In this document: positions 5,677 to 54,070 of the stretch, piece after piece
Numbering within the stretch: position 1 is the first letter of the stretch
How the letters are laid out: each line of letters opens with the position of its first letter
NCBI GenBank assembly: GCA_034668185.1
Contig: JAXDPV010000245.1
Location: forward strand, 1 to 60,642
DNA from: Actinomycetota bacterium
GTDB lineage: Bacteria; Actinomycetota; Acidimicrobiia; Acidimicrobiales; CADCTF01
Length of the DNA stretch: 60,642 nucleotides
Direction of reading: 5' to 3'
Made by a program: the position numbers and the translations under genes
The notes under the pieces: generated by a model
Database searches by the model: none
Told to the model about the DNA's origin: nothing
Seen by the model: only the letters and a program-made list of their open reading frames with translations

Positions 5677-7061
5677 CAGGCGCACACGTCCTCGGGCAGC
5701 AGCTCCATCAACTGCTCGTTGGTCGGGTTGGCGATGGCCACGAGCCGGCTGGCCTGGTGGGCCATCGTCGCCTCGAAGAGGTTGCGCACCAACCGGCCGT
5801 TGCCGAACCCCTTGTCCCGTACCTGGGCATCGAGGTAGGAACGGGCGGCGGCCGACGCCGCGACCGGGCACGTGTACGACGCCTTCTCGCACATCGACCC
5901 GAAGATCGAGACCAGCTCGTCGGTCGTGTAGTCGGGGAAGTGGATCGTCTTCGGGAAGCGGGACCGCAGGCCGGGGTTCGACTCGATGAACTCGTGCATC
6001 TCGTCGGGGTAGCCGGCGGCGATCACCACGATCTCGTCGCGATGGTCTTCGATCAGCTTGACCAAGGTGTCGGTGGCCTCCTGGCCGAAGTCGTTGTCGC
6101 CGCCCCGGGCCAACGCGTAGGCCTCGTCGATCAGCAGCACCCCGCCGATGGCCGACTCGAAGACCTCGGTGACCTTGAGCGCGGTCTGGCCGACGTAGCC
6201 CGCGACCAGCCCGGCCCGGTCGGTCTCGACGAGGTGTCCTTTCTCCACGACCTTCAGTGTGCGGTACACCTGTGACAACAACCGGGCGACGGTCGTCTTG
6301 CCGGTGCCGGGGTTGCCGGTGAAGACCAGGTGGCGGCTCGATTCGCTCACCGGCAGGCCCCGCTCCTTGCGCAGGCCCTGCACCCGCAGCAGGTTGGCCA
6401 CCAGCTTGACCTCGGCTTTCACCGGGGCCAGGCCGACCAACCCGTCGAGCTCGGCCAGCAGCTCCTCGATCGGCCGGGCCGGCTCCTGGGGCGCGGCCGG
6501 CGGGCGGGCCGCGGCCGCGGCCGAAGCCGGCGCCCCGGCGGCGCCACCAGGCCGGGGCAGGCCGCCCCGGTCGATGGACCGCAACAGCACGTTGCGGAAG
6601 CGCTCGATGCCGGCGAGCTCGTCGTCGCTTGGCACGTCGTCGGCGGCGCACACCGCATGGGCCAGGTCCATGGCCAGCTCGTAGTAGCGCCAGGCGTTCG
6701 ACGTGCGGTGGATGCGGTCGGTCTCGACGAGGATGTCGAAGAACAGCGACGGCGCCGCCAGCCACGCCCGCTTGCCGGTGACCAGGCCGGCCTTGCGGAC
6801 GTCGTCGGGCGTGGCCATCGACAGCGACGACGCCATGCGAGGGGCGAAGGTAGCGACGAAGGACCAGAGCTCGGCGTCGGTCTGGCGGCGGTCGATGTCG
6901 ATGAAGGCGGCGACGATGTTGTAGGCCTCGACGGTGACGTCGGCCGGCGGCTTGTCGGTGGGCACGCCCGGGATCACGTCGCCGGCGATGTCGGCCAGCA
7001 CCGGCGTGAGCTCGTCGACGAACCGGCCGACCGGTTCCTCCAGCAGGTTGTCGTGGCTCAT
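5676..7061 (-). CDS. AAA+ ATPase of the CbbX/SpoVK/EccA type with an N-terminal helical, possibly TerB-like, domain
   Basis: Start at ATG 7061 (MSHDNLLEEPVG). Walker A GNPGTGKTT, Walker B VLLIDEAYAL, and the family-typical LDGLVGLAPVKAEV and PGLRSRFP motifs. The N-terminal 190 aa contain two ADG-like repeats (AAFIDIDRRQTDAEL, AVCAADDVPSDDELAGIERF) followed by a Pro/Ala linker. Confidence 0.85.
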   Translation of the reverse strand: MSHDNLLEEPVGRFVDELTPVLADIAGDVIPGVPTDKPPADVTVEAYNIVAAFIDIDRRQTDAELWSFVATFAPRMASSLSMATPDDVRKAGLVTGKRAWLAAPSLFFDILVETDRIHRTSNAWRYYELAMDLAHAVCAADDVPSDDELAGIERFRNVLLRSIDRGGLPRPGGAAGAPASAAAAARPPAAPQEPARPIEELLAELDGLVGLAPVKAEVKLVANLLRVQGLRKERGLPVSESSRHLVFTGNPGTGKTTVARLLSQVYRTLKVVEKGHLVETDRAGLVAGYVGQTALKVTEVFESAIGGVLLIDEAYALARGGDNDFGQEATDTLVKLIEDHRDEIVVIAAGYPDEMHEFIESNPGLRSRFPKTIHFPDYTTDELVSIFGSMCEKASYTCPVAASAAARSYLDAQVRDKGFGNGRLVRNLFEATMAHQASRLVAIANPTNEQLMELLPEDVCA

Positions 7062-7612
7062 GGGGCGCTCAGTCTGCCCAGCTTCCGCGTGGCCTGTCCG
7101 GCCAGGGCCCGGGCGATGGGCGCGGCCGTGTCGGGCGGGGTACTCGCCACCTCGATGGTGAGGTACGAGTCGGCGTAGAGCACGTGGAGGGTGGCCTCTT
7201 CCTCGACGAAGAAGTCGGTCGTGCTGCTCGCCGCGGCTTCGTCGGGGTGGCGTTTGGCCGCGGCCGCGAACCGGGCCTCGGCGCTGAAGCCGGTGCGGCG
7301 GACCTGGTCGGACATGTCGGCCGTGCGCACGAGTTGGACGAGCACGGCCTTGGTCCCGTCGGTCGTGGCCCAGGCGCAGCCGCTGCGGCCGGCAAGGGCG
7401 TCGGTGCCGCCGCCGGCGCTCGGAATGGGCGGGTCGACGGGAGTGCCGAGCACCTGGGCCACGGCGGTTGGGGAGAAGAGGGCGCAGGCGGTGACGGGCG
7501 GGTCGGCCTCGGTGGCGCCGCCGGTGCTGCCGCACGCGGCCCCGGCCCCGGCCAGCAGGCCGAGCAGGATGATCGGGAGCGCGCGCCGGTAGATTGTGCA
7601 GATGGCCGACAC
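7058..7612 (-). CDS. Small lipoprotein (hypothetical)
   Basis: A GTG start at 7612 gives MSAICTIYRRALPIILLGLLAGAGAACGS, a signal peptide plus lipobox. The stop overlaps the AAA+ start (ATGA at 7058-7061). The start is uncertain and overlaps the divergent proA start by a few nt. Confidence 0.5.
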   Translation of the reverse strand: MSAICTIYRRALPIILLGLLAGAGAACGSTGGATEADPPVTACALFSPTAVAQVLGTPVDPPIPSAGGGTDALAGRSGCAWATTDGTKAVLVQLVRTADMSDQVRRTGFSAEARFAAAAKRHPDEAAASSTTDFFVEEEATLHVLYADSYLTIEVASTPPDTAAPIARALAGQATRKLGRLSAP

Positions 7613-8861
7613 GCCCACGACCGCCAGCCTCGCAGACCTCGGCGCGCGGGCCAAGGCGGCGTCCCGGGCCTTGGCCCTGGCGCCGACCGCGGCCAAGGAC
7701 GCCGCCCTGCTGGTGGCCGCCGACCTCTTGGTCGAGCGCACGGCCGACGTGTTGGCGGCCAACGCGGTCGACGTCTCTCGGGCGACCGACGCGGGCACGT
7801 CGCCGACGGTGATCGACCGGCTGCGACTCGACGAACGGCGGGTGGCGTCGATGGCGGCAGGGCTGCGGGACGTGGCCGGGCTCGCCGATCCCGTGGGCCA
7901 GGTCGTCGAGGGCTGGACCCGCCCGAACGGGCTCCACATCGACCGGGTGCGGGTGCCGCTCGGCGTCGTCGGCATCATCTACGAGAACCGGCCCAACGTG
8001 ACCTCCGACGCCGCCGGCCTGTGCGTGAAGTCGGGCAACGTCGCTTTCCTTCGGGGTTCGTCGGCGGCCATCACCTCGAACGTGGCCATCGCCGGCGTGC
8101 TGCGTGAGGGCTTGGCCAAGGCCGGGTTGCCGGCCGACTCGCTGGTGTTGGTCGAGGACACGTCCCGCGAGTCGGCGGTCGAGTTCATGCGGTTGCGGGG
8201 CGTGATCGACTGCCTGATACCGCGGGGCGGCACGTCGTTGATCGCCGCCATCCTGGCCAACGCCACCGTGCCCTACGTCATCGACGGCGACGGCAACTGC
8301 CACGTGTACGTCGATTCGTCGGCCGACCTCGACATGGCCCTGTCGATCGTCGTCAACGCCAAGACGTCCCGGCCTTCGGTGTGCAACGCCGCCGAGTCGC
8401 TGGTCGTGCACTCGTCGGTGGCGGCCGACTTCCTGCCCCGGGCCGCGGAGGCCCTCGACGGCGTCGAGCTCGTGGGCGACGCCGCCGCCCGCTCGATCGT
8501 CCCCTCGATCGGGGCGGCCACCGACGACGACTTCGCCACCGAGTTCCTCGACTTGAAGATGTCGGTCGCGGTCGTGGACTCGTTGGACGCTGCCATCGAC
8601 CACGTGAACCGCTACGGCTCGGGCCACTCCGAGGCCATCGTCACCACCTCCCTCGACGCCGCCCAACGGTTCACCCACGAGGTCGACGCCGCCGCCGTCC
8701 TCGTCAACGCCTCCACCCGCTTCGTCGACGGCGGCGAGTTCGGCTTCGGCGCCGAGATCGGCATCTCCACCCAGAAGCTCCACGCCCGCGGCCCCATGGG
8801 CCTCCGCGAGCTGACGACCACCAAGTACGTCGTCACCGGAAACGGCCAGATCCGGCTCTAG
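7596..8861 (+). CDS. proA: Gamma-glutamyl phosphate reductase
   Basis: 421-aa ORF (GTG 7596, or ATG 7602). Aldehyde-dehydrogenase-like, with the catalytic Cys context RPSVCNAAESLVVH and the C-terminal ARGPMGLRELTTTKY. Confidence 0.92.
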   Translation: MQMADTPTTASLADLGARAKAASRALALAPTAAKDAALLVAADLLVERTADVLAANAVDVSRATDAGTSPTVIDRLRLDERRVASMAAGLRDVAGLADPVGQVVEGWTRPNGLHIDRVRVPLGVVGIIYENRPNVTSDAAGLCVKSGNVAFLRGSSAAITSNVAIAGVLREGLAKAGLPADSLVLVEDTSRESAVEFMRLRGVIDCLIPRGGTSLIAAILANATVPYVIDGDGNCHVYVDSSADLDMALSIVVNAKTSRPSVCNAAESLVVHSSVAADFLPRAAEALDGVELVGDAAARSIVPSIGAATDDDFATEFLDLKMSVAVVDSLDAAIDHVNRYGSGHSEAIVTTSLDAAQRFTHEVDAAAVLVNASTRFVDGGEFGFGAEIGISTQKLHARGPMGLRELTTTKYVVTGNGQIRL

Positions 8862-8917
8862 ACCGGCGGCCAAAACTAGACCGGTCGGTCAAGTGCCCGA
8901 GTAGGCTGCCCGGCACT

Positions 8918-9808
8918 ATGGCCGACCACCGATTCGAGTCCGTCCCGGCTGTCCGTGAAGCGCTGCAGGGCGTCGACTACCTCGCCGACGAGGGCATCGC
9001 CGGCGTCGTCTACCTGGCCGACCGGCTCCAGAAGCCGATCCTCGTCGAGGGCCCGGCGGGCACGGGCAAGACCGAGCTGGCCAAGAGCACGGCCCGCATG
9101 ACGGGCGCCCGCCTCATCAGGCTCCAGTGCTACGAGGGCCTCGACGAATCCAAGGCCCTGTACGAGTGGAACTACAAGAAGCAACTCCTCCGCATCCAGG
9201 CCCAGCGGGTGGTCGAGGAGGGCGGCGAAGGCAAGTGGACCGAGATCGAGGAGGACATCTTCGGCGAGGACTTCCTGCTCACCCGCCCACTGCTCGAAGC
9301 CATCCGGAGCAAGGACCCGGTCGTCCTGCTGATCGACGAGGTCGACCGCGTCGAGATCGAGACCGAGGCCCTCTTGCTCGAGATCCTGTCCGACTACCAG
9401 GTGTCGATCCCCGAGCTCGGCACCATCGAGGCCACCCAGATCCCGCTCGTCTTCCTCACGTCGAACAACACCAGAGAGCTGAGCGAGGCCCTCAAGCGCC
9501 GCTGCCTCTACCTCCACCTCGACTACCCGACGCTGGAACGGGAGAAGGAGATCGTCCTCACCCGGGTCCCCGACGTGAGCGACCACCTGGCCGACCAGAT
9601 CGTGCGCATCGTCCGCAGCATCCGCAGCCTCGAGCTCAAGAAGCACCCGTCGGTCAGCGAGACGATCGACTGGGCCCGCACCCTCGTCCTCCTGGGCATC
9701 GAGAACATCGACGCCGAGCAGGCCAAGGAGACGCTCCACATCCTCCTGAAGTACCAATCCGACATCACCAAGGCGGCCAAGGAACTGTCGACCAACGGCG
9801 CGCGCTAA
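8918..9808 (+). CDS. MoxR-family AAA+ ATPase (CoxD-like)
   Basis: Start at ATG 8918 (MADHRFESV). Walker A GPAGTGKT, Walker B VLLIDEVDR, and SEALKRRCLYLHLDYP, which is typical of MoxR/CoxD. Confidence 0.85.
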   Translation: MADHRFESVPAVREALQGVDYLADEGIAGVVYLADRLQKPILVEGPAGTGKTELAKSTARMTGARLIRLQCYEGLDESKALYEWNYKKQLLRIQAQRVVEEGGEGKWTEIEEDIFGEDFLLTRPLLEAIRSKDPVVLLIDEVDRVEIETEALLLEILSDYQVSIPELGTIEATQIPLVFLTSNNTRELSEALKRRCLYLHLDYPTLEREKEIVLTRVPDVSDHLADQIVRIVRSIRSLELKKHPSVSETIDWARTLVLLGIENIDAEQAKETLHILLKYQSDITKAAKELSTNGAR

Positions 9809-9812
9809 GACC

Positions 9813-11240
9813 ATGCTCGACCTGCTCGCCGGCTTCATCCAGGAGCTGCGCAACGCCGGCCTCCCGGTGTCGCTCACCGAGAACCTCGACGCCATGGAGG
9901 CGATCCAGCACATCCCCATCGAGGATCGCGACGCCTTCAAGTACGCGCTGGCGGCCACGCTGGTCAAGAACAACGGCCACTGGAAGACGTTCGAGACCGT
10001 GTTCGAGGTCTACTTCTCGATGCGGGGCCCGCACTACAACATCGCCGACCACGACGCCGACGACGAAGCCCTGGCCCAGATGATCGACGAGATGATGGGC
10101 CAGCAGCAGCAACAGGGCGGCGGGCTCGAGGGCATGACGCCAGAGGAACTGGCCGAGATGCTCTACAAGGCGTTGCAGAACGCCGACGAAGCCATGCTCA
10201 AGGCCATCGCCCGCCAAGCCGTGCAGCGCTTCTCGGGCATGGAGCCGGGCCGGCCCGTCGGCGGCACCTATTACCTCTACCGCACGCTGCGCAACCTCGA
10301 CCTCGACGGCGTCCTCGAACGGCTCATGCAACAGGCCCAGGACACGGCCGACGGCAAGCAGTCCGACCTCGAGGAGCGCCTGACGCGGGACGAGTACGCG
10401 GACCGCATCGACAAGCTCAAGAAGGAGATCGAGGCCGAGATCCGTCGCCGCCTGGTCGCCGACCGGGGCGCGGAGGCGATGGCCAAGACGCTGCGCAAGC
10501 CGTTGCCGGAAGAGGTCGACTTCATGCACGCCTCACGGGAAGAGCTGTCGATGCTGCGGCGGGCGATCTACCCGCTGACCCGGAAGCTGGCCGTGCGCCT
10601 GGCCCGCAAGCGCCGCCACGGACGCAAGGGGCCGCTCGACTTCCGCAACACCGTCAGGCACTCGCTGTCCTACGGCGGCGTGCCCGCCGAGCCCAAGTTC
10701 AAGTACCCCCGCCCGGCCAAGCCCGAGATCGTCGTGGTGGCCGACATCAGCGGTTCGGTGGCCGCCTTCGCCCGCTTCACCCTCCAGTTCGTCTACGCCA
10801 TCTCGTCGCAGTTCTCCAAGGTGCGTTCGTTCGTCTTCATCGACGGCATCGACGAGGTCACCTCGTACTTCGAAGGCGTCGAGGACGTGATGGACGCCGT
10901 CCACCGCATCAACACCGAGGCCGACGTCATCTGGGTCGACGGCCACTCCGACTACGGCCACGCTTTCGAGACCTTCTGGAACAAGTGGGGCAAGGAGATC
11001 ACCAAGAAGTCGACGGTGATCCTCCTCGGCGACGCCCGCAACAACTACCACGCCTCCCAGGCGTGGGTGGTGAAGGAGATCGAGCAGCGGGCCCGCCACG
11101 TCTTCTGGCTCAACCCCGAGCCCCGGGCTTACTGGGACACGGGCGACTCCATCGTCAGCGAGTACGGCGCCCATTGCGACGGCGTGTTCGAGTGCCGCAA
11201 CCTGAAGCAGTTGGAGAAGTTCGTCGAGCAATTGGCGTAG
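9813..11240 (+). CDS. VWA domain protein (CoxE-like), partner of the MoxR ATPase
   Basis: 475 aa. N-terminus MLDLLAGFIQELRNAGLPVS is typical of CoxE-like proteins. C-terminal VWA domain with MIDAS VVVADISGSV and ILLGDARNN. Starts 4 nt after the MoxR stop. Confidence 0.8.
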   Translation: MLDLLAGFIQELRNAGLPVSLTENLDAMEAIQHIPIEDRDAFKYALAATLVKNNGHWKTFETVFEVYFSMRGPHYNIADHDADDEALAQMIDEMMGQQQQQGGGLEGMTPEELAEMLYKALQNADEAMLKAIARQAVQRFSGMEPGRPVGGTYYLYRTLRNLDLDGVLERLMQQAQDTADGKQSDLEERLTRDEYADRIDKLKKEIEAEIRRRLVADRGAEAMAKTLRKPLPEEVDFMHASREELSMLRRAIYPLTRKLAVRLARKRRHGRKGPLDFRNTVRHSLSYGGVPAEPKFKYPRPAKPEIVVVADISGSVAAFARFTLQFVYAISSQFSKVRSFVFIDGIDEVTSYFEGVEDVMDAVHRINTEADVIWVDGHSDYGHAFETFWNKWGKEITKKSTVILLGDARNNYHASQAWVVKEIEQRARHVFWLNPEPRAYWDTGDSIVSEYGAHCDGVFECRNLKQLEKFVEQLA

Positions 11241-33045: not shown

Positions 33046-33654
33046 TCACACGTCGTCGAGACGTTCTGACAGCTCGAGCGCTTGTTGCACTGCCTCGGGC
33101 AGTGGCGCATCGCGTGGGGGCCAGACCTGCAGGCCATACCGCTTGACGAAGTTGAGCGGAATTTTCGGGTTGTTCAGATGGACCGGAGCTCCGCCCGTTG
33201 TTCGCAACTTCTCCTGGCGAAGGAGCTCTGCTTCCCACTTTGAAAAGTAGACCTCCAAGGGTTCAGGCATGATCTCGTAAATCGCTTCTGGGTGCGATTG
33301 GTCAAACACAGCAACGATCCACAGAAACACCTGGCGGTAGCGTGCGATGTTCGCCCTTGTGAGGGTGTGCTCCGTCGTGACGTCGAGCTGAGGCTTCCTG
33401 AGTCCGCGTGAACTGATTCGCGCCACCGTCTTGACTTCATATCGCCGACCCTGCTCATCCTCGGCGTCATCGCCTTCTCGGTAGAGCTTCCGCAGGTTGA
33501 AGAGTCTAAGAAGCAGCAACTCCTTGTAGCCACCGTCGTCGAACACGTTGTGGAGGGCGTGTTCGGTCGCCACCTCTTGTAGTCGGATGCCCAGTTCGAT
33601 GAGGCTGCGGATGTCACCCGTCGGAACCAATCGGGGGGATTGGCGGGGAGGCAC
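33046..33654 (-). CDS. Type II restriction endonuclease, PvuII-like
   Basis: Aligns by eye with my memory of R.PvuII: GDDAEDEQGRRYEVK versus GNDAVDNAGQEYELK (D-x9-E-x-K), IARYRQVFLWIVAVF versus IAKYRQVPWIFAIY, EAIYEI.PE.LEVYFSKWE versus EAIYRLEPKDLEFYYDKWE, and NNPKIP conserved. A GTG start at 33654 is 4 nt after the C-gene stop; the ORF is open to ATG 33714. Confidence 0.75.
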   Translation of the reverse strand: MPPRQSPRLVPTGDIRSLIELGIRLQEVATEHALHNVFDDGGYKELLLLRLFNLRKLYREGDDAEDEQGRRYEVKTVARISSRGLRKPQLDVTTEHTLTRANIARYRQVFLWIVAVFDQSHPEAIYEIMPEPLEVYFSKWEAELLRQEKLRTTGGAPVHLNNPKIPLNFVKRYGLQVWPPRDAPLPEAVQQALELSERLDDV

Positions 33655-33658
33655 GCGC

Positions 33659-33895
33659 TTAGCTCTTCTCGAAGAGACTCGTAGTCGGAACCTCCAGAGC
33701 ACGGGCAAGTGCATAAATGTTGTCCAGTCCTACGTTTCTCAGGCCTCGTTCAAGGCTGGAGACGTACGTCCGATGGATGCCCGCTCGTTCGGCGAGCGCC
33801 TCTTGCGACAGCCCGCGAGCATCCCGGAGCGCCCGCACGCGCCGTCCAAACGCTCTCCGATGCGAGTCCACCGAACCGCGCCGTTGGTCCGTCAT
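33659..33895 (-). CDS. Controller (C) protein of the R-M system, XRE-type HTH
   Basis: 78 aa. LSQEALAERAGIHRTYVSSLERGLRNVGLDNIYALARAL matches the C-protein signature (..ERG.RN.....I..I..AL). It lies directly upstream of and co-oriented with the endonuclease gene, and divergent from the methylase gene, as in PvuII. Confidence 0.8.
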   Translation of the reverse strand: MTDQRRGSVDSHRRAFGRRVRALRDARGLSQEALAERAGIHRTYVSSLERGLRNVGLDNIYALARALEVPTTSLFEKS

Positions 33896-36195: not shown

Positions 36196-37311
36196 ATGGC
36201 GCACGAGTGGACGGCGAGAAGCCGAGTGGCGGTAGCGGGCGCGGTCGTGGTGGGCATCGCCCTGATCGTCACCCAACGGCACGGACCTGAACGTGCCAGC
36301 ATCAGCGCGCCCACCACCACCACCATTGATCCGTCGCTGGCCATTCTCAATGGCGAAGCCCGGGGCACCCTGAACGTCGACAGCAGCTGCGGCCAGTTCC
36401 TGGCGGCACCAGCGGTCGAACAACTCGACGTCGCCTATCGGTACGTCCGAGCGATGGTAGAGGTGCACTTTGACGACCGGTTGAGCGAAGTGCAGGCGTA
36501 TTGCCACAACCATCTGACCGCCACGGTCCTCGATGCCATGTCGAGCGTCCTCAATCCGGAGCCACCGAGCACTACCACCGCACCGCCACCCGCTGGCGAG
36601 GTGTTGTCCTATCAAGGCCGACCGACCTTCACTCCAGCCCAGCTGCCGTCAACCAAGGATCGAACCGCGTCTGGAAAGGTCTACGCCACGCTGACCATCG
36701 ACCGAGCTCGCCAAAGCAGCGCCGGCTACCTCGTCAGCGTCCATTATCGCTGGGAGGCGGAGATCGGCCAGCCGATGGTGAGCGTGGTGACACCAGACGG
36801 CAAGTGCATGAGCGAACGGCCAGCGGTGCGCAAGCTCGAGGACAACGGCCCTAATAACGAAACCGGCGTCATCCAGCTATTGGTGCATACACCGGGGGAA
36901 TATCGCCTCGGCGAGGAATGCGGCGAGGGACGAGTGCAGGTCAGCGTCGGCACCGTCACCTTCCCGGCCATCGGCGATCTACCGCAACTAAGCACCGGCA
37001 CTGGCCGGTTTCGGGCGGTGCGCCGGGACGCCGATTCGATTCGGATCAGTGTTGTGACCAACAACTGCGGTACCTGTCAACCACCCGCCGACTTCTGCCT
37101 GCTGACCAACGACAGCGGGCCGAGCGCTGGCCGAGATGGCCGAACCCTACCGTGGGAGCAGGCGCCGGATACCGGCATGAGCGACCTCGGCGGCGAGGTC
37201 GATGATGTCGTGTTTCCGGGGGTCGATGGTGGCGTCGTCGCCGAAGGCACCTGCGCACAACTAATTAATCGCGGCGCCGTCGACAGATCGTCGAGCCTGG
37301 TGATTCCGTAG
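36196..37311 (+). CDS. Membrane-anchored extracytoplasmic protein, no recognisable domain
   Basis: 371 aa with an N-terminal anchor (VAVAGAVVVGIALIV), a Thr/Pro linker and several Cys pairs. Divergent from the XRE gene. Confidence 0.55.
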   Translation: MAHEWTARSRVAVAGAVVVGIALIVTQRHGPERASISAPTTTTIDPSLAILNGEARGTLNVDSSCGQFLAAPAVEQLDVAYRYVRAMVEVHFDDRLSEVQAYCHNHLTATVLDAMSSVLNPEPPSTTTAPPPAGEVLSYQGRPTFTPAQLPSTKDRTASGKVYATLTIDRARQSSAGYLVSVHYRWEAEIGQPMVSVVTPDGKCMSERPAVRKLEDNGPNNETGVIQLLVHTPGEYRLGEECGEGRVQVSVGTVTFPAIGDLPQLSTGTGRFRAVRRDADSIRISVVTNNCGTCQPPADFCLLTNDSGPSAGRDGRTLPWEQAPDTGMSDLGGEVDDVVFPGVDGGVVAEGTCAQLINRGAVDRSSSLVIP

Positions 37312-37564
37312 GTCGGTTGATCGCCACGGTCCCCCAGGACGCGGAGTCGGTCGGGCCGGGTTCCCCAGCGCCCGACCCGGCCGAGCCGCCGTCCCTGCGT
37401 CGCGAGCCCGGAGTCTCGGCGGTCGGCGACCAGCCCACCACGCAACAAGCAGGAATACACATCCAGTAGGACGAAATACCTCTCTGGCGGGGTCTAAGCA
37501 GCAGTTTCGGCTGGTCTGTTCCTGTCCGTGGGGCCGTCCCAAATAGCGGGAGGAACAACAACAC

Positions 37565-39358
37565 ATGACCATGTCCATCTGGCGCCGTCGCACGGTGCCT
37601 TTGCTGCTCGGGGTGCTCCTAGCCGCGGGCTTGATCGTCGCTCAGCCAAAGCCCGAGCCGGCCTTCGCTGCGTGCGATATTGCCGACCCGACCGCCCAGG
37701 CTTGCATCGACACTGTCACCGGCCAGGTCGACTACTGGAGGAACTGGAGCCAGCCGACCATCGACGCCGCCGTGGCGTCCGCACAAGCAACGGCCCAGCA
37801 GTGCCTTCAAGACTGTCAGGTACTGATCAACTCGTTTGTCGCGGAGGCCCAATACCTCGCCGGGTTCGCCTACGCGCACACCTGCGGGCCGAGCGCCGTC
37901 ATCGTCGGCTGGCCGTCGTGCGAACAGTTGCTGTCGAACGTCATAGCGCTCGTAGTCCAGACCGGGACCAGCATCGTCTATGGCTTGCTTGACCAGGCCA
38001 CCCGACCGGACTACCCGGCCCAACTTGCCGCCACCGTGACGACGTTGGCGCTGGCGATTGTCGACATCTTTGTCACCATTGCGAACAACGTGGTCAACCT
38101 GCTCATGCCAACCGCGCAGGGGGCCGTCGCCCAAGCCGGTGCGATCGTCAACCCGGTCGTGGCTCAGGCCACCGGTACAGTCAATGGCGCCGTCGCCCAA
38201 GCCACCGGCATCGTCAACCCGGTCGTCGGACAGGTCCAGTCAATCGCCAACAATCCGCTGGCAGCAGCGCAGCCGGTCTTCGGACTGGTCAACAGCATCG
38301 TTGGCACGGTCCAAGCGGCGGCGGCCAGCCTGCAGCCGACCGTCGACCAGGCAACCTATACGGCGCTGCAAACCGTCAACAGTGCCCTCACGACGTTGCA
38401 AGGCACAGTGGCGTTCATCGCCAGCCAAGTGCCTGACCCGAACTCGGCGGCGGCACAGGTCGTGGCGCTTGCGAACAGCACGCTGCCGACCGTGATGCAG
38501 GCGGTCGCCCAGGTTCAAGCCGTTGCATTCAGGGTGACTGGACTGGCAGCGCCCGATGGTGACAACAACACCGGTGACGCCGGTTCGTCTGGTGGACTGC
38601 CGTCAACCGATCCGGCCTACTACGTCGAGGTGGCCAAGAAGTTGGTAGTGGCCACGCAGTACGAGACCGACGTCGACTACGGCCTCGCCAAGTACCTTGA
38701 TCCAACCACGGAGTCGGCAGTTGTCAGCGCGCCCGATCACTGCTATCTCGACCCGATGGAGCACTTCGGCACGAGCAGCACTAGAAGCTCTACGTGCTAC
38801 GGCTCGCCGGGGCCGGTGAAGCCGACGCCGAGAATTGCCGAACATCCAGACAACGAGTTGGCCAACCACCCGCTCTACTTGCAATCCCGCGAGTACACCT
38901 GTGCACCTTCGAGCGCTCGGGAAGTCCTGCAGTACTACACGCACTCCGACTTCGGTGAGATGAACCTCGCCAACGAGATGGGAACTAACTCAAGCAACGG
39001 CACCTATTGGGACACGATGGTCAAGGTCATGAATCGCAAGAGCACCATCCAGTATCTTGGCGAAACGATTGGCGGTCCCGACAAGCTGATGACGCGTGTG
39101 GTCTACGACGTCAACGGTGATCGTGAGCTAGCCCACGGCACCGTCCTGAACGTCAACCAGAGCCACCTTAGTTACTGGCATCGGACGGCGAACGACTACA
39201 ACAAGCACTACTTGGTGGCCTCGGGCTACAACTTCCGCTCCGGTGGTCATGTGATTCTGCTCGATGGCGGCAACCAAGGAGTGCTGGGGCGTCATGACGT
39301 GGCGTTGACTGAGGCTTACCAAGCCGTCGCGGCCAACAAGTCGCTCATCATCTGGTGA
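37565..39358 (+). CDS. Secreted protein: Ala/Gln/Val-rich repeat region plus C-terminal papain-fold (C39-like) cysteine peptidase domain
   Basis: Signal peptide MTMSIWRRRTVPLLLGVLLAAGLIVAQP...AFA. Good Shine-Dalgarno sequence (GGGAGGAAC). The C-terminal part has Q-x5-C context LQSREYTCAPSSAREVLQYY and His context NKHYLVASGY...VILLDGG, resembling C39-like peptidases (from memory). Confidence 0.6.
   Translation: MTMSIWRRRTVPLLLGVLLAAGLIVAQPKPEPAFAACDIADPTAQACIDTVTGQVDYWRNWSQPTIDAAVASAQATAQQCLQDCQVLINSFVAEAQYLAGFAYAHTCGPSAVIVGWPSCEQLLSNVIALVVQTGTSIVYGLLDQATRPDYPAQLAATVTTLALAIVDIFVTIANNVVNLLMPTAQGAVAQAGAIVNPVVAQATGTVNGAVAQATGIVNPVVGQVQSIANNPLAAAQPVFGLVNSIVGTVQAAAASLQPTVDQATYTALQTVNSALTTLQGTVAFIASQVPDPNSAAAQVVALANSTLPTVMQAVAQVQAVAFRVTGLAAPDGDNNTGDAGSSGGLPSTDPAYYVEVAKKLVVATQYETDVDYGLAKYLDPTTESAVVSAPDHCYLDPMEHFGTSSTRSSTCYGSPGPVKPTPRIAEHPDNELANHPLYLQSREYTCAPSSAREVLQYYTHSDFGEMNLANEMGTNSSNGTYWDTMVKVMNRKSTIQYLGETIGGPDKLMTRVVYDVNGDRELAHGTVLNVNQSHLSYWHRTANDYNKHYLVASGYNFRSGGHVILLDGGNQGVLGRHDVALTEAYQAVAANKSLIIW
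38123..38233 (+). repeat. Intragenic 66-nt (22-aa) tandem repeat, about 2 copies
   Basis: GCCGTCGCCCAAGCC...ATCGTCAACCCGGTCGT occurs at 38123 and again at 38189. It encodes AVAQAGAIVNPVVAQATGTVNG and AVAQATGIVNPVVGQVQSIANN. Confidence 0.6.
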
Positions 39359-40488
39359 GCATGGTCCAGGCACGACACCGCCAGAAGCGCCGTTGCTTCC
39401 TGCTGACGGCGGTGTCGTGCCTGGCGCTCGCGGTGCCGGCCTGTTCGCCTGGTAGTTCGACGAAGACAGAGGTGGGCGGTGGCTCGTCAACCACGGCCCA
39501 CGGCCAGGCGCCGATCGTGCGGGAGATCGCCCGCATTCCGGCAGCCGATGCATCCTGGGTCGATATCTCGGGACAACGCCTCACTTGGACGACCGCCAGC
39601 CAGCCGGGCGGTCGGCACGACGAAGTGGTGGTCTACGACCTCACAACCAAGCAACAACAGATCGCCGCTCGGCCGGGGACAAGGGGCGGTGTCACCGACT
39701 GGTCGCGCATCAGCGACACAACCGTGGCTTATACCGACCAAGCGGCAGACCTCAACGCCGACAACAGCACCGGGCATTCGCCGTGGCGCATCATGGTGTT
39801 GAATCTAAGCACCGGTAAGAGCCAGGTCGTCGACCAAGACCGATCCGTGGCCGAGCAGGCCTTCGTACCGACGGTGGAGCTCCACCTGCCGTGGGTGGCG
39901 TGGTTGCGTCCGACTGGTCGACCTAACCACTACGACTTGATGGTCTTGAATCTCGAGACCAACCAGCGCCGGACTGTGGCCGCTGACGGCGACATCTTCG
40001 ACATCGGTCTCACTAGCTCGAGCGTCACTTACTCCCTGCCGGCGAGCGAACAGGGCGGCCGAAACCTGTTCGTCGCCGAGCTCGTATCCGGTTCGTCGCC
40101 CAAGCAGCTGACCACAACCGGCGCCGTGACTGAAGGCGGCAAACACGGCGGCAGGGTGGCCGTCTATGCCGAGGCCAAGGCCGGCACGGGAGCGGTCTAC
40201 GTCGTGCCCCTGGCCGGTGGTCCGCCGCAGTTGCTGAGCGATGCCGTTTCGGAAGCACCGAATCCGGTCGGCAGCGAGGCTTTCGCCGCTTGGTGGAACG
40301 GCAGTGGCGACGTCCAAGTCGGCTCGTTTACATCGGGGCGGCCGGTAACGACTGTTGGGCCGAAGGGCTACTCACACGTGCCGAGTCGCATCACAGCGGA
40401 TGGCGACTTGGTGGTCTGGGGCGAGGTCAAAGACATCAACCAGCCGGACGCGGCTGAGCTGGTGGTCAGCAAGGTGGCGGTGGGATAG
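39355..40488 (+). CDS. Lipoprotein, probable beta-propeller (TolB-like)
   Basis: Signal plus lipobox (CFLLTAVSCLALAVPACS). Repeated beta-strand-rich segments. The start (GTG 39355 or ATG 39361) overlaps or abuts the upstream stop. Confidence 0.55.
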   Translation: MSMVQARHRQKRRCFLLTAVSCLALAVPACSPGSSTKTEVGGGSSTTAHGQAPIVREIARIPAADASWVDISGQRLTWTTASQPGGRHDEVVVYDLTTKQQQIAARPGTRGGVTDWSRISDTTVAYTDQAADLNADNSTGHSPWRIMVLNLSTGKSQVVDQDRSVAEQAFVPTVELHLPWVAWLRPTGRPNHYDLMVLNLETNQRRTVAADGDIFDIGLTSSSVTYSLPASEQGGRNLFVAELVSGSSPKQLTTTGAVTEGGKHGGRVAVYAEAKAGTGAVYVVPLAGGPPQLLSDAVSEAPNPVGSEAFAAWWNGSGDVQVGSFTSGRPVTTVGPKGYSHVPSRITADGDLVVWGEVKDINQPDAAELVVSKVAVG

Positions 40489-41100
40489 CCACCGTCGCAG
40501 CCTGTCGAATGGGTCAGCCAGCGAGCCGCAGCTTTCAGATTCCGGCTGGCGCGACCGCGACCGTGAATGGTCATTTTCGGGTGGGTTGCTGAATCTTCCA
40601 GGACATTTATCCTCGCCAACAACTGGTAACGATGGGGTACGGCGGCAGTGGTCATTCGGGGCTTGGCTTGGGTTGTGTTTCATGGCCGCGGCTGTTCGTT
40701 GTTCTCGGAGCCACCGATCCGTTTCGTGCTTCTGCCGCCACCGGATCGCGACCAAGGAAACGACCAGCGACTCGGCGATTGCCATGATGGCCACAACTGT
40801 CTGCCCGCTCACGTTTGTACGGACTACCACTCCTTTACGCAACGTGGCCCCCATCCGACTCGCCGAGGCCAACGGGCCTTGCTCGCAGTCACCAATTCGA
40901 AGCCGCGTTCTGAGGGTCCACCGCCGCGTCCCCACAAGGGTGTAATTACAGTGATGTGAGCTTCCATGATGGACCGCAGTTTGCATGATATACTTGGAAA
41001 GTCATGAAAATTTCGTCCCGATTTTTGGGGCGGCGACTCCAGTGGGCCTCCAGTCACGTCGAAGGCCAAGGGTGCAGGCCGCGAGCCACGAGGCTTCACC

Positions 41101-41826
41101 TTGGAAGGTGAGCCTCCATTATCAGGCGATGCCAGGCGGCTTCGTTTCGATGCCGACATGAGCTTCGCTCTAGCTGGCGGCGCCGACTACCACGATGCTG
41201 AAGCTGTAGTAGGGCGTCCGGTCAGTCTCGTTGCCGACGATTCACGAACCAGCGGTGCCGCCGGTGAGGTTGAGGGGCACTGGGCGGACGATACAGATAC
41301 GTTGATCGGTCTCGTTGGACACCTCGAAAGTGCGCTGATCTCCGAAGAACTCGAGATTGCCGGTGAGCTTGAAGGGGAGCTGCGTAACCTGGTCGTGAGG
41401 CGACGTACTCTTGGGTTCTGGTTGCTTACCTTCCTTGCGACCCGCGAACACCAAGCATCGCGGTACATGTCTGCCGCGTTCTGTGAGGACTACGCACGCG
41501 CTCATGGCCTTCTCCCCACAGGGATCCTTGTGGGCCACTTCCGCGACCGTGATGAATGGGTGAGCTCACGGGCTTGGCTGGCGATGAACCACTTGCTCGA
41601 CGAGCCCGGTGAACTTGACATGGCGATGAGTGAACTCGACGTACTCACGTTCGCGGCGGGCGAGGAGGGGTTATATGTCGAAGCCGAGGCGCCGGACGGC
41701 CTTGTCTCGTCGCAGAATTGCCTTGGCGAGGTTGGGGAACTCTGGAGCGTGTCTGGCGCAGAGCGTCCGGAAGGCGGCGAACGCTGCCTCGGTAAACGCG
41801 GCGAGTTCGGTTTGCCGTCCGACTGA
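41101..41826 (+). CDS. Doubtful hypothetical ORF (TTG start), convergent with and overlapping the protease gene
   Basis: 241-aa ORF with no recognisable motifs. Its last 156 nt are antisense to the 3' end of 41671..42789. Third-position GC does not discriminate it from the opposite strand. Confidence 0.2.
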   Translation: MEGEPPLSGDARRLRFDADMSFALAGGADYHDAEAVVGRPVSLVADDSRTSGAAGEVEGHWADDTDTLIGLVGHLESALISEELEIAGELEGELRNLVVRRRTLGFWLLTFLATREHQASRYMSAAFCEDYARAHGLLPTGILVGHFRDRDEWVSSRAWLAMNHLLDEPGELDMAMSELDVLTFAAGEEGLYVEAEAPDGLVSSQNCLGEVGELWSVSGAERPEGGERCLGKRGEFGLPSD

Positions 41827-42789
41827 ACTTGCCTCATGGACAAGCTCAGCGAACTCCTCGCGGAGCGCGTCGAACTCGACGAGGCTAAGCCACCGACTAG
41901 CTGGTGTTTGCGCACTCCTCCAAGCGTCGAAGGCGTTCACGAGGTTCTGGAAGAAGGTGAACGGCGACTCGCGAATCCAGGTGACATTCGCCGGCTTGGC
42001 ATCGGACAGCAAATCAGCTACGTATGACAAGGCGTTGTGGGCGTTCTCGCCCGCATCATGTGACAGCCCGTCGGGGTCCGCAGCCTTCAGGTCGTCGCTG
42101 AACATTTTAAGGACTGCACCGCGGAAGAAATCCCATTGCCAATCTGGAGTGCCCTGTCGGCGGTCGCCGAAAGTGAAGATCCGGGCCACATGGCCAATTG
42201 GCGCGATGTAACCCGTCTTGGTGCCGGGCCTGCCGCGCAAGAGGATCCCGCCAAGGATGTTCTCATCGTCGTCCGTCCAGAGGGTGTCGCCACTATCGCC
42301 GTGCTCGAAGAGAAAGTCTTGACCTTCAGATAGAAGAACTTGCACCTCGGCGCAGTGGTCGTGATTGCCCTGGACTCGGCACTCGAAGATCGTGTCTCCG
42401 TCGTTGGGTCGATGAGCGATGCCACGGAGCTTCATTCCTCGCGTGAGGACAAAATCAGGTGCGATTGTGGCGGGCTCGGCCTCGGTGGGGATGTCGGTGA
42501 CGCGGAGATTGGCGATGTCGGCATCCTTCGCGTGCAGTACTCGTCCCACGACGGCGGTTCCCCGCCAATCCCGGTCGATGAATGGGAAGCCAACCGTTAG
42601 CGTCTTGCCCTTGATGCTTGGCCAATGGCCACGACGCTCCGCGTTAACCGCATCCTCAACGACGTGCGCCGGCGTAACGATCGTGTCCTCAAGAACCGCG
42701 AGGACACCATGACCAACGGCGTCACCGTCCCTTCCGTAGATGCAAACTGTTGTGTTTGTCCAGGGCTCGTTCTGATCGTTCGCGGTCAT
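41671..42789 (-). CDS. Cytoplasmic trypsin-like serine protease fused to an unassigned C-terminal helical domain
   Basis: 372 aa with no signal peptide. Catalytic triad contexts TPAHVV (His), DADIANLRV (Asp) and EHGDSGDTLW (Ser). The C-terminal roughly 170 aa are helical and unassigned. A GGAAGG Shine-Dalgarno sequence lies inside the upstream gene. Confidence 0.8.
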   Translation of the reverse strand: MTANDQNEPWTNTTVCIYGRDGDAVGHGVLAVLEDTIVTPAHVVEDAVNAERRGHWPSIKGKTLTVGFPFIDRDWRGTAVVGRVLHAKDADIANLRVTDIPTEAEPATIAPDFVLTRGMKLRGIAHRPNDGDTIFECRVQGNHDHCAEVQVLLSEGQDFLFEHGDSGDTLWTDDDENILGGILLRGRPGTKTGYIAPIGHVARIFTFGDRRQGTPDWQWDFFRGAVLKMFSDDLKAADPDGLSHDAGENAHNALSYVADLLSDAKPANVTWIRESPFTFFQNLVNAFDAWRSAQTPASRWLSLVEFDALREEFAELVHEASSVGRQTELAAFTEAAFAAFRTLCARHAPEFPNLAKAILRRDKAVRRLGFDI

Positions 42790-43098
42790 TTACGCCTTCC
42801 ACTTCACGGTCACGGTTGCGCTCGCGTCGACGGTCCCCGTAAAGAGAACCAGATCAGCCTCGCTACTCAAGCCGACGCTGAACTGCAGCTCTACTTCGTA
42901 GGACCCCGTGAGGTCCTTGGCCAAGCCATCCCGCAACAGCTGCGTCGTTTTGCCGATGGCACTAATCGATCGACGAAGCTGATGGTCCAAGCCCTCCCTA
43001 ACACGGTCCCCGCGTGAGAGTGGGACCGGTCCAGCGATACTGGTTGCGACGGGCTGGATAAGCACCCACGTCCCGTCGTCGAGGTTGAGCTTCAACAT
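42790..43098 (-). CDS. Trypco2-like (trypsin co-occurring domain 2) small protein
   Basis: 102 aa: MLKLNLDDGTWVLIQP... with C-terminal YEVELQFSVGLSSEADLVLFTGTVDASATVTVKWKA. This matches the pattern I remember for this family (..VEVEFGVKLSAEAG....G.ANFKVTL.W). The stop TAA abuts the protease ATG. Confidence 0.65.
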   Translation of the reverse strand: MLKLNLDDGTWVLIQPVATSIAGPVPLSRGDRVREGLDHQLRRSISAIGKTTQLLRDGLAKDLTGSYEVELQFSVGLSSEADLVLFTGTVDASATVTVKWKA

Positions 43099-43422
43099 GA
43101 GGCGATCTCCCTGGAGGGACGCGCCGGCGCGCCATTGGACCGAGGCGAAGGAGAGGAGGGGTATCCGTGCTGTTGAAGAATCAAGTAGTAGTGGATGTAG
43201 GTGTACCCCACGTGAGCGTGAGCGGGTGAATGCCGCAATTCTTACCCAACTCTGCTTCCGCGGTCCAGAACAGTGACTGCGTCACTGGTCACGGTCAGAC
43301 GGGATAGCTGTTCCTGACGGTGGAACTACCCAGCGCAGGTGCTTCGGCGGCTTCTTGGCGCTGGCTATGGTGTTCGGGCCGAATGTGGGTGCAGTTTCCC
43401 CGGTATCCTCCCCGATAGTGAC

Positions 43423-43501: not shown

Positions 43502-44272
43502 GTGCCCCGACTGCCGCAACCAGCTGAGCCATTCCGGTTCCTGATCGAGTCGCAACCACGGGTTGTGCTACGGAGCGCGCAAGGCGTTCAGTCGTGTGAC
43601 AGTCCCCACTACGAGCGACTGAGCAGCGCCGCTATCGAACTCTTCAGCGAACGAGGCCTGGACGGCGTGCGTTTCTCCGATGTCTGCGAGGCCGCTGGTC
43701 TGTCCCGTCAAACAGGGTACCGATTGTTCCCTCGTGGGCTGGATGCCCTTACGGAATACCTTGAAGTCTGCACGCTGGCCGCGATCATCCAGAGCATTAG
43801 CAAGAAGCGGCGGTCGATGCACTCGAGTGTCGGGTTCAAGCAGACCTTCGAAGCGGGTGTTGAGGGTGTTGTTGAGGCGTTTCGTCAAGCTCCATGGACT
43901 CGCGAAGTGCTCCGCTGGAACAGAGGGCTCCTAGCTAGTTATCTGCTCAACACAGATCCGGATGGCCTCTGGGCCGTCCTTTCCAGCTACACAGCTGCCT
44001 GCGCCAGGTCGTTCCGCTGCCTGACCGACAATGTTGACGAACACGCGAAGACCTTGGTGTGGGAAGTCCTCTCTACATGGCTCGTCAAGTACCCACCTCC
44101 TGAGGACCGGCGCCTTGCGTGGCCGCACATCGAGCATGTTCGTGCCGTGATAATGGAGCCGCTGGAACGCTTCATTGCAGTCGTGCGGCCTAGCAATGAA
44201 GAGCAAGACAGCGCCGCGGTTCCGGACGTTGCCGTGCCATCAGCCCTCGAGCCGAGCCAGGCGGCGTTCTGA
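43502..44272 (+). CDS. TetR-family transcriptional regulator
   Basis: GTG start. HTH region ERLSSAAIELFSERGLDGVRFSDVCEAAGLSRQTGYRLFP. Confidence 0.75.
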   Translation: MPRLPQPAEPFRFLIESQPRVVLRSAQGVQSCDSPHYERLSSAAIELFSERGLDGVRFSDVCEAAGLSRQTGYRLFPRGLDALTEYLEVCTLAAIIQSISKKRRSMHSSVGFKQTFEAGVEGVVEAFRQAPWTREVLRWNRGLLASYLLNTDPDGLWAVLSSYTAACARSFRCLTDNVDEHAKTLVWEVLSTWLVKYPPPEDRRLAWPHIEHVRAVIMEPLERFIAVVRPSNEEQDSAAVPDVAVPSALEPSQAAF

Positions 44273-52228: not shown

Positions 52229-54070
52229 ATGCCTAACGCAGCAACCTCGCCATCGACACAACGCCGGAGTGGCTATGCCCGTGCTCGACCGCCGGCCGCT
52301 GAGGCTGTTTCGACGGGCCGAGCCGTGCTCTACCTCCGGGTCAGCACCCCGAGCCAGGTACGGACCGACTACGACCCCGAAGGCCTGTCGATCCCGGCTC
52401 AGCGTTCGGCCTGCGAGCGCAAGATCGAGCAACTCGGCCTGACCATCGTCGACGAGTACGTCGAACCGGGCCGGACCGCCACCAGCATGGATAAGCGCCC
52501 GGCCTTCCAGGCGATGCTGACCCGCATCAAGACCGAGCGGGACGTTGATTTCGTAGTCGTCTACAAGCTCTCCCGGATGAACCGCAACCGCATTGACGAT
52601 GCCTTGGTGGTGATGAGCCTGCGGCAACTGCAGGTGACCCTCATCTCGGCCACCGAACACATCGACGAGACACCGATCGGCCAACTGATGCACGGCATCC
52701 TGGCTACCATCAACGAGTTCAGGTCGGCGGAAGACGGGGCCGACATTCGCTACAAGATGGGGGAAAAAGCCCGTCGGGGCGGCACGCTCGGCCTTGCACC
52801 CTTGGGCTACCTCAACGTGCGCGAACAATTCGACGGCCGAGAAATCCGCACGGTGGCAGTCGATCCCGAACGTGGACCTTTGGTCACGGTCGCTTTCGAC
52901 CTGTACGCCACCGGCCGCTACACGGGTGAGCAGCTGCGCGATGAATTGACCAAGCGGGGGCTGCGTACCAGGCCGGGTAAGCACCCAGCCGGCCCGGTGT
53001 CTCTCTCGAAGCTGCAAGCCATGCTGCACGACCGTTACTACCTCGGCTTTGTGTACTACGACGGGGAGGAGATACCGGGTCGCCATGAGGCCTTGGTCAC
53101 GCAGGAAGTCTTCGACCGGGTGCAGGCCGTGCTCGAGGCCAAGACAACCAGCGGCGAGCGGCAACGACGCCACCACCACTACCTGAAAGGTTCACTGTGG
53201 TGTGGCGCTTGCCACGACCAGGGCCGGACGTGTCGGCTAATCATCCAGCGAGCGGTGGGCCGGCAACAGCAGCGGGAGTACTTCTATTTCTTCTGCCGGG
53301 GACGGCAACAACACGTCTGTGACATGCCGTACCTCGACATGGATTCGGTGGAGGAAGCCGTTGCTGACTACTACGGCGACTTGCAGCTAACGCCAGCTTT
53401 CGCAGCACGGGTGCGCGACAAGGTGCGTGAAGCACTGGGTGACGAACAGCAGGCAAGCAAGCTGCTCCGCCGGCAGCTGACCAAGGAACTGGCCACGCTC
53501 GACCGTCAAGAAGAAAACCTGCTCGATCTGGTGGCGGATGGTGAGCTGGTGACCGACAAGGCCAAAGCTCGATTGCGGAAGCTGCGGGCAACGCGGGAGC
53601 GGCTGGCGGTAGAACTGCAACGGCTGGAGAGCGACTTGGGTGAAGCGGCTGATGCCGTGGAACTGACGCTGTGTTTGCTGGCTGATCCGGAGGCGTTGTA
53701 CCGGCGGATGGATGACCAACAGCGGCGCCAGATGAACCAAGCCTTCTTCGAGAAGCTGTACGTCGATGTCGATGGAGTGAGTGAAGCGTGCTTGACGGCA
53801 CCAGTCGCCACGTTGGTGGAAGCTCAAGGCCTAGTGCAGGAGGGATGGACCGATCCAGGGGAGAGTGTTGTGGCTAGCAAAACAGCGGTCTTGCTAGCCA
53901 CCGCCCTGGTGGGCGGGGGTTCTAGTAAGACCGCTGTGGTGGACCTGGGGGGATTTGAACCCCCGACCTTCACCATGCCATGGTGCTGCGCTACCGAGCT
54001 GCGCTACAGGCCCGTCGAGGCGGAGACACTAGCACCGGAGCCACATGGCCCAAGCCCCGCCGTTCCCTAG
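52229..54070 (+). CDS. Large serine recombinase (integrase)
   Basis: GAAAGGAG Shine-Dalgarno sequence. Catalytic AVLYLRVSTPSQ, a recombinase domain, Zn-ribbon Cys (CGAC...C...FFCRGRQQHVC), then a coiled coil. The annotated 3' end runs through the island junction and antisense across tRNA-Ala. Confidence 0.85.
   Translation: MPNAATSPSTQRRSGYARARPPAAEAVSTGRAVLYLRVSTPSQVRTDYDPEGLSIPAQRSACERKIEQLGLTIVDEYVEPGRTATSMDKRPAFQAMLTRIKTERDVDFVVVYKLSRMNRNRIDDALVVMSLRQLQVTLISATEHIDETPIGQLMHGILATINEFRSAEDGADIRYKMGEKARRGGTLGLAPLGYLNVREQFDGREIRTVAVDPERGPLVTVAFDLYATGRYTGEQLRDELTKRGLRTRPGKHPAGPVSLSKLQAMLHDRYYLGFVYYDGEEIPGRHEALVTQEVFDRVQAVLEAKTTSGERQRRHHHYLKGSLWCGACHDQGRTCRLIIQRAVGRQQQREYFYFFCRGRQQHVCDMPYLDMDSVEEAVADYYGDLQLTPAFAARVRDKVREALGDEQQASKLLRRQLTKELATLDRQEENLLDLVADGELVTDKAKARLRKLRATRERLAVELQRLESDLGEAADAVELTLCLLADPEALYRRMDDQQRRQMNQAFFEKLYVDVDGVSEACLTAPVATLVEAQGLVQEGWTDPGESVVASKTAVLLATALVGGGSSKTAVVDLGGFEPPTFTMPWCCATELRYRPVEAETLAPEPHGPSPAVP
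53882..53937 (-). terminator. Nested hairpin immediately downstream of tRNA-Ala
   Basis: Outer arms ACAGCGGTCTTGCTAG (53882-53897) and CTAGTAAGACCGCTGT (53922-53937) pair at 15 of 16 positions. Inner stem CCGCCC-TGGT-GGGCGG. Confidence 0.5.
53937..54013 (-). tRNA. tRNA-Ala (anticodon GGC), CCA encoded
   Basis: The reverse complement reads GGGCCTGTAGCGCAGCTCGGTAGCGCAGCACCATGGCATGGTGAAGGTCGGGGGTTCAAATCCCCCCAGGTCCACCA. It folds as a cloverleaf with the G3:U70 Ala identity pair, anticodon loop AT-GGC-AT and T-loop GGTTCAAATCC. Confidence 0.9.

Follow-up and report, generated by a model that had tools for sequence, protein, structure and literature searches.

A major design now emerging in bacterial immunity is the death effector gated by a protease, which has parallels in caspase-gasdermin signalling. 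To our knowledge, the characterised examples all couple the protease to a large sensor, be it a nucleoside triphosphatase (NTPase) of the STAND class (signal transduction ATPases that have numerous domains), a CRISPR-associated SAVED domain or a reverse transcriptase. Here, we describe a pair of genes, one for a Trypco1-family protein and one for a short trypsin-like protease with a helical C-terminal tail, found in a contig of 60,642 nucleotides (JAXDPV010000245.1, assembly GCA_034668185.1; this whole stretch is called the window below) from an Actinomycetota bacterium of the order Acidimicrobiales. We lean slightly towards the view that these two genes make up a self-contained conflict module of the 'Pepco' type, which combines a protease with an effector and belongs to the cargo of an integrative mobile element; this reading draws on analogy with a pair characterised in Streptomyces.

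Comparative genomics alone, in work on the vWA-MoxR-VMAP ternary systems, led to the definition of Trypco1 and Trypco2 (PMC7159879). The joint name 'Pepco' was given to both families in a preprint of November 2025 (Evans et al., bioRxiv 10.1101/2025.11.14.688446), in which the small protein SsPepco and the protease SsAvs4 from Streptomyces subrutilus were characterised. According to that work SsPepco is a pre-assembled pore toxin, forming heat- and detergent-resistant nonamers and decamers with the shape of a beta-barrel, and SsAvs4 is a 1638-amino-acid (aa) trypsin-STAND Avs4 NTPase that senses the phage portal protein. The protease cuts SsPepco after Ile97 and so removes a charged, proline-rich C-terminal tail of about 20 aa; SsPepco truncated exactly at Ile97 is toxic by itself, and the toxicity triggered by portal requires SsPepco and is abolished when SsPepco is deleted (10.1101/2025.11.14.688446). 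The proteases of Pepco modules are fused to sensors such as a STAND ATPase, FGE or a peptidoglycan-binding domain (10.1101/2025.11.14.688446). The logic of a protease-activated toxin is thus already known, experimentally for the sister family Trypco2, to which SsPepco belongs (WP_069919158.1, sequence from the preprint supplement; 65.6 bits). A preliminary description of the window, made from the sequence alone, had known of no experimental characterisation of such a pair and had placed the protease under the control of its small partner. The first statement is superseded by the preprint and the second is probably to be reversed, since it is the small protein that acts as toxin in the characterised pair, with the protease as activator. 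The published literature that we searched contains no experiment in which a Trypco1 protein, or a short protease carrying this particular tail, was studied.

The window pair resembles SsPepco and SsAvs4 in that a protein of about 100 aa is encoded directly upstream of a predicted cytoplasmic trypsin-like protease with an intact triad, and it shows the arrangement by which Pepco modules are recognised, a small gene directly upstream of a gene for a serine or cysteine protease that appears catalytically intact. Both genes lie on the minus strand (Table 1), where the TAA of the Trypco1 gene (42792-42790) directly abuts the ATG of the protease gene (42789-42787). The two contiguous open reading frames (ORFs) of 102 and 372 aa were correctly placed in the preliminary description, and so was the Shine-Dalgarno sequence of the protease gene inside the upstream gene; the position of this motif, GGAAGG at 42795-42800, implies translational coupling. 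The GC content at the three codon positions (0.60/0.45/0.75 and 0.65/0.46/0.70) is compatible with genuine coding frames, and the chosen start codons are supported by the N-termini of both proteins, which can be aligned with distant homologues. The mean Kyte-Doolittle value never exceeds 1.1 over any 19-residue stretch of either protein, which argues against a signal peptide or a membrane helix in both and agrees with the earlier view that the protease is not exported. A scan for promoter and terminator consensus sequences around the operon found nothing over background. The Trypco1 gene is separated by 403 bp from a divergent TetR-family gene (43502-44272), a neighbour that is not kept at other loci, and this stretch holds a 10-3-10 inverted repeat, GAACAGTGAC TGC GTCACTGGTC, at 43268-43290, which could be a candidate operator for the pair.

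The 102-aa protein is assigned by profile search to Pfam PF19493, Trypco1, with 45.2 bits (cut-off 24.6, E 1.4e-11), residues 5-101 being matched to positions 2-97 of the 98 in the profile. It also matches the NCBIfam CU044_2847 family (30.1 bits, cut-off 23) and can be aligned with the Trypco1 proteins encoded upstream of related proteases. The protein had at first been recognised as Trypco2, an identity that does not hold: no match to Trypco2 (PF19631) was obtained at E<=1, nor any similarity to SsPepco. Its 45 bits stand against 78-99 bits for the Trypco1 copies beside related proteases, mostly those with STAND-type sensors, and mark it as a divergent member of the family. Like SsPepco, it has an amphipathic helix (residues ~31-50) together with strongly amphipathic beta-strands, with hydrophobic moments of 1.62 vs 1.70 for the helix and 2.72 vs 2.78 for the strand, and it comes from an actinobacterial host and a defence or conflict setting; by this analogy Trypco1 is plausibly membrane-active. 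Unlike SsPepco, it carries an extra N-terminal strand-plus-linker segment, which Trypco2 proteins lack. Its C-terminus reads ...TVTVKW-KA, so that only Lys-Ala follows the last strand and Trp100. In the Trypco1 copies that accompany the family of proteases with this tail, 2-9 aa follow the near-invariant Trp, and up to 16 aa do so in copies adjoining STAND-fused proteases.

The 372-aa protein is predicted to be a cytoplasmic HtrA-like serine protease with a catalytically intact triad, His42/Asp91/Ser166. The C-terminal peptide of the small protein and the triad motifs that the preliminary description had quoted (TPAHVV, DADIANL, GDSGD) are all present. An AlphaFold2 model built with the family alignment as input reached a predicted local distance difference test (pLDDT) of 87.4 and was used in place of the model from the single sequence (pLDDT 38). 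It comprises a beta-rich domain at residues ~14-205 and six helices within 215-367, and in a Foldseek search of the PDB it was best matched by DegS without its PDZ domain (2qf0; E 3e-9, target-normalised template modelling score, TM-score, 0.74), with DegP and HtrA also at about 1e-9. HtrA/DegS proteases (S1C) are thus the closest structural match and share the His-Asp-Ser triad; they differ in that the window protein, 17-19% identical to them, is predicted to be cytoplasmic and has neither an export signal nor a PDZ domain. No NTPase domain was found in it by the Pfam scan or in the AlphaFold2 model. Among the aligned members of the family, Trypsin_2 was matched by 16/19 (E<=0.01; best E 9e-15), and their protease parts matched the PADLOC defence-protease models RT-Protease_XI (14/19), LmuA (9/19) and Avs1b (3/19). 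For the two window proteins PHROGs gave nothing meaningful.

At the position of the sensor the window protease has a conserved helical domain of 165 aa that matches no known family. Its helices are predicted at 215-237, 244-263, 276-292, 296-320, 326-346 and 352-367, mostly with pLDDT >90, and the motifs RGxxxW, FFR, LLxDL, YxxWN, RR..L..LR and FP are conserved. No tail was matched by Pfam in any of the 19 members, and tails scanned separately at E<=10 gave only noise, with no match to models of VMAP or of effector-associated domains. When the tail profile was compared with PDB sequences only de novo helical bundles were returned (E>0.03); Foldseek with the whole protein against the PDB and viral structures gave matches to the protease domain and none to the tail. 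No similarity was found between the tail profile and the C-terminal regions of short proteases from Kitasatospora and Micromonospora. Across the family the identity of the tail rises and falls with that of the protease domain (Spearman 0.69), so that both domains evolve as one unit. Judged by its conservation and predicted fold, the tail is a real, family-defining domain outside the described families. The preliminary description had likewise been unable to assign it to a family; its picture of a stripped-down system fits less well, as the tail is a conserved domain at the very position held by STAND-WD40 sensors in related proteases.

The family is sparse. When 1.84 billion representative proteins were scanned exhaustively with HMMER, 24 proteins or clusters were obtained at E<=0.001, the query's own sequence included. 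The others are 22-33% identical, and most are 350-380 aa long and can be aligned end to end, with the same layout of protease plus tail. Apart from the window's own proteins, word-index searches gave essentially nothing, whether the query was the protease, the Trypco1 protein or the family alignment; for the protease no homologue turned up among 72,556 plasmids and 50,697 phage genomes, and no close relative in species-representative genomes. DNA was retrieved for nine relatives, several of them on short contigs. In 8/9 a Trypco1 gene lies directly upstream (P0003, P0004, P0005, P0007, P0008, P0011, P0012 and P0015), with protease identities of 22-28%. Because the arrangement recurs at such distances, the pair is a conserved unit rather than a chance adjacency, and the synteny expected by the preliminary description is borne out. 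The exception, P0006 (L012 538-2883), has PNP_UDP and TRADD-N domains ahead of the protease-plus-tail and no upstream Trypco1 gene, which suggests that the nucleosidase-like domain substitutes for Trypco1 as effector. In a further member, P0023, the same tail stands behind a non-protease N-terminal region. The other neighbours of the pairs vary by locus, some lying near transposases and RHS toxin genes.

More remote proteases place the pair beside systems with large sensors. When species-representative genomes were scanned with an alignment of the subfamily, related protease domains came up in the cyanobacteria Dapis and Okeania, in Pseudonocardiaceae, in Kitasatospora and in Micromonospora, 31-41% identical over the protease part only, the identities of the L015-L018 and L022 proteins being measured against the query of the genome scan, P0011. 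Several of these proteases are preceded by a strong Trypco1 gene (78-99 bits) and continue into nSTAND1-WD40 or Metallophos-NA-iREase3-pentapeptide-WD40 regions, and a Trypco1 gene was likewise seen right upstream of proteases fused to regions of the Metallophos-NACHT-type-WD40 kind. The trypsin-nSTAND1-WD40 loci of Dapis, Okeania and Pseudonocardiales (L015-L018 and L022) are like the window in Trypco1 family, gene order and protease clade, save that L022 has no Trypco1-like ORF upstream. Their proteases run on into a STAND NTPase of the P-loop type and sensor arrays (WD40 or pentapeptide) of 1100-1500 aa, whereas the window protease ends after 372 aa in its compact helical domain without an NTPase. 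The window thus appears to hold a Trypco1-protease cassette in which a compact helical domain takes the place of the usual C-terminal STAND sensor. A further short form is found in Kitasatospora sp. NPDC049258 (L019 7661-9203), where a 406-aa trypsin protease with an unassigned C-terminal region of ~190 aa follows a strong Trypco1 gene (81 bits). This region is unrelated to the window tail (hhalign probability 0.2%), and NTPase-free Trypco1-protease pairs may therefore have more than one origin.

The systems in which the Trypco families were first delineated (Kaur, Burroughs, Iyer and Aravind 2020) also have a trypsin-like peptidase adjoining a Trypco gene; the window pair differs from them in having no adjoining vWA or MoxR genes and no detected VMAP domains. 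No vWA, MoxR or STAND/NACHT NTPase gene was found inside the island of 32.5-54 kb in which the pair lies, as the preliminary description had stated for STAND/NACHT NTPases nearby, and no NTPase, vWA or MoxR gene was found in the flanks of any relative for which DNA was at hand, several of these contigs being short. Since such genes are missing from the island and from the relatives' flanks, the tail would replace an NTPase rather than accompany one.

On the model of SsPepco and SsAvs4, the protease would activate Trypco1, a toxic effector that is latent until then and plausibly forms a membrane-active oligomer from its amphipathic helix and amphipathic strands. The protease in turn would be held inactive by the helical tail until a cue appears, which may be a protein of a phage or foreign element or a stress signal; the tail would then license it, perhaps through oligomerisation and without hydrolysis of NTP. 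Cleaved Trypco1 would kill or arrest the cell, as in abortive infection, and so protect kin or the element. As only Lys-Ala follows the last strand, processing would be limited to a short C-terminal trim or to a cut in the N-terminal linker. One candidate site lies directly after the conserved Trp100 (Ile in one member), giving a very short trim; the other is Leu26|Ser27, a semi-conserved aliphatic residue followed by Ser/Ala/Gly, where a cut would release the N-terminal strand segment that is absent from Trypco2 proteins. It is a tentative and rather doubtful proposal that the helical domain is a new compact, NTP-independent sensor which directly recognises a cue from a phage or foreign element, switches the attached protease on and is combined with a cleavage of Trypco1 unlike that of Trypco2, at an N-terminal plug or at the last two residues.

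Several observations weigh against a self-contained module of the Pepco type. The pore mechanism is carried over to Trypco1 by analogy from Trypco2, the sole family studied experimentally, and between the Trypco1 profile and SsPepco no similarity is detectable (hhalign probability 0.1%). The window Trypco1 has neither the removable, charged and proline-rich C-terminal tail of ~20 aa found in SsPepco nor the conserved Ile or Ile-Arg motif at which SsPepco is cleaved. For the window protease the Pfam Trypsin_2 score, 21.9 bits, falls under the cut-off of 27.6, and neither of the window's two proteins matches a PADLOC model. The searches with the tail (Pfam, PDB sequences, C-termini of short proteases) yielded no ligand, fold relative or function. 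Co-variation between Trypco1 and protease gave no clear signal at identities of about 22% (Spearman ~0; Mantel r 0.28, p 0.02), and most relatives lie on short contigs, so that a more distant partner gene is possible.

An alternative that we consider unlikely is that the module is not autonomous. The tail would then be an adaptor through which the protease docks onto a sensor whose gene lies elsewhere, such as a STAND NTPase or a vWA-MoxR pair, comparable to the VMAP proteins and effector-associated domains described by Kaur et al. 2020. Trypco1 was after all defined in vWA-MoxR-VMAP systems, where peptidases may be stand-alone beside the core (PMC7159879), and the variable heads on a constant tail, a non-protease region in P0023 and PNP_UDP with TRADD-N in P0006, are typical of adaptors and scaffolds. 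The window does contain one pair of the vWA/MoxR type, its only one, an AAA_5 (MoxR/CoxD-like) gene followed by a VWA_CoxE gene at 8381-11240. It is probably unrelated to the Trypco1 pair, which is ~30 kb distant, as it lies in core-like sequence beyond the compositional island. Nearby are genes for an SBP-plus-vWA protein (2978-5557) and a protein with AAA and AAA_lid_6 domains (5676-8873). The docking model is further opposed by the missing vWA, MoxR and STAND genes beside the pair, both here and in the relatives, by the lack of Pfam matches of the tail to the VMAP and effector-associated models, and by the travel of the pair on a mobile element, which favours self-sufficiency.

Quite improbable, in our judgement, is that the protease itself is the effector, degrading host or phage proteins, with Trypco1 as a small regulator, inhibitor or chaperone as in antitoxin-toxin systems. 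A small upstream gene coupled to a larger enzyme gene is indeed the usual antitoxin-toxin layout, defence proteases without an effector exist, such as caspase-like ones (10.1101/2025.11.14.688446), and the window Trypco1 is without the propeptide tail to be expected of a toxin activated by cleavage. However, the results with the Trypco2 pair point the other way, as deletion of the small protein abolishes toxicity there and its truncated form is toxic alone; Trypco1 also accompanies STAND-regulated proteases, which need no separate inhibitor, and its pattern of amphipathic helix and strands fits a membrane-active protein.

The setting of the pair bears on the self-contained module as cargo. The region 32500-54070 is a compositional island with a GC content at third codon positions of 0.69-0.81, vs 0.9-0.97 in flanking genes, and by its gene set it appears to be an integrative element of the conjugative type. 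The same element, with its genes in the same order and its protease protein identical, recurs on three further contigs from metagenomes. On its left are a PvuII-like endonuclease and a methylase, ending ~6 kb from the pair, in keeping with the earlier description of the pair as mobile-element cargo 6 kb from a restriction-modification system; on a public contig small helix-turn-helix genes lie beside the endonuclease, typical of controller proteins of such systems. The block of apparently secreted proteins that follows (36196-40488) includes one of 597 aa in which a Peptidase_C39_2-like domain is accompanied by a long repetitive region rich in Ala, Val and Gln; for the other two no family match was found. 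Next come the Trypco1-protease pair with the TetR-family gene, a coupling protein of the TrwB/TraD type, a Replic_Relax protein, a second N6_N4 methylase, an XRE and ImmA/IrrE pair and, next to a tRNA-Ala gene, a large serine recombinase. The coupling protein has its best plasmid matches in Embleya and Streptomyces (35-37% identity), in line with an actinobacterial host, whose genome is of high GC content. It is the sole P-loop protein in the vicinity; it was also considered as the absent STAND partner and rejected, its weak match to nSTAND_NTPase5 (25.8 bits, cut-off 34) overlapping its P-loop. Either the C-terminus of the recombinase overlaps the tRNA-Ala gene or its true stop lies earlier. 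No direct repeats longer than 11 nt that could mark attachment sites were found between the tRNA-Ala end of the island and its left end. The segment 3' of the protease gene (40490-41670) holds no convincing gene; calls on the identical public contigs conflict, one being a 70-aa minus-strand gene and another a 241-aa plus-strand gene that overlaps the 3' end of the protease gene, and none of the candidates has a family match.

That the pair instead serves the element, by addiction or stabilisation or by attacking competing elements with the same protease-toxin chemistry, is very improbable: it does sit between the conjugation/relaxase block and other cargo, shares its upstream region with a divergent TetR-family gene and the inverted repeat, and has relatives near transposases and RHS toxin genes, but the relatives are not consistently on recognisable mobile elements, the plasmid and phage genomes searched hold no homologue and the TetR-family gene is no constant neighbour elsewhere.

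Table 1. Features of the Trypco1-protease locus and of the surrounding island, in window coordinates.
Feature	Position	Strand	Remarks
Trypco1-family gene, 102 aa	42790..43098	minus	TAA stop 42790-42792 included; presumed latent effector
Gene for 372-aa predicted cytoplasmic serine protease with helical C-terminal domain	41671..42789	minus	ORF; stop 41671-41673
GGAAGG, Shine-Dalgarno-like motif of protease gene	42795..42800	minus	Within Trypco1 coding sequence; read from sequence
AGGGAG, ribosome-binding motif of Trypco1 gene	43107..43112	minus	8 nt 5' of the Trypco1 ATG; read from sequence
Trypsin-fold (S1C/HtrA-like) domain, residues ~12-205	42175..42756	minus	Predicted by Foldseek against PDB and Pfam Trypsin_2
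Catalytic His42, codon CAC (TPAHVV)	42664..42666	minus	His in 16/16 members spanning the column; invariant in subfamily alignments
Catalytic Asp91, codon GAC (DADIANL)	42517..42519	minus	Aligned with conserved D-[IV]-A-T-L motif
Catalytic Ser166, codon AGT (GDSGD)	42292..42294	minus	G164, S166 and G167 near-invariant in family
Family-specific six-helix C-terminal domain, residues 208-372 (~165 aa)	41674..42168	minus	Presumed sensor/regulatory module
PvuII-like endonuclease	33046-33714		222-aa ORF; 194 aa as called on public contig
DNA methylase, 591 aa	33943-35718		N6_N4_Mtase matched in two separate stretches
Three genes, apparently secreted proteins	36196-40488	plus	
tRNA-Ala(GGC) gene	53937-54013		Serine recombinase frame (ORF end 54070) runs antisense through it

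The locus represents a known kind of defence module in a rare form that has no NTPase. As the family is rare and was not met in the plasmid, phage and species-representative sets searched, current defence catalogues would miss it. A two-gene version with a helical bundle of 165 aa as its sole candidate sensor makes a much simpler system in which the off and on control of such proteases can be studied, and the pair would offer the first test of the view, so far assumed, that Trypco1 works like Trypco2; having no removable C-terminal tail, Trypco1 may work differently. If true, the compact sensor and the novel cleavage of Trypco1 would make this the smallest known protease-gated cell-death module.

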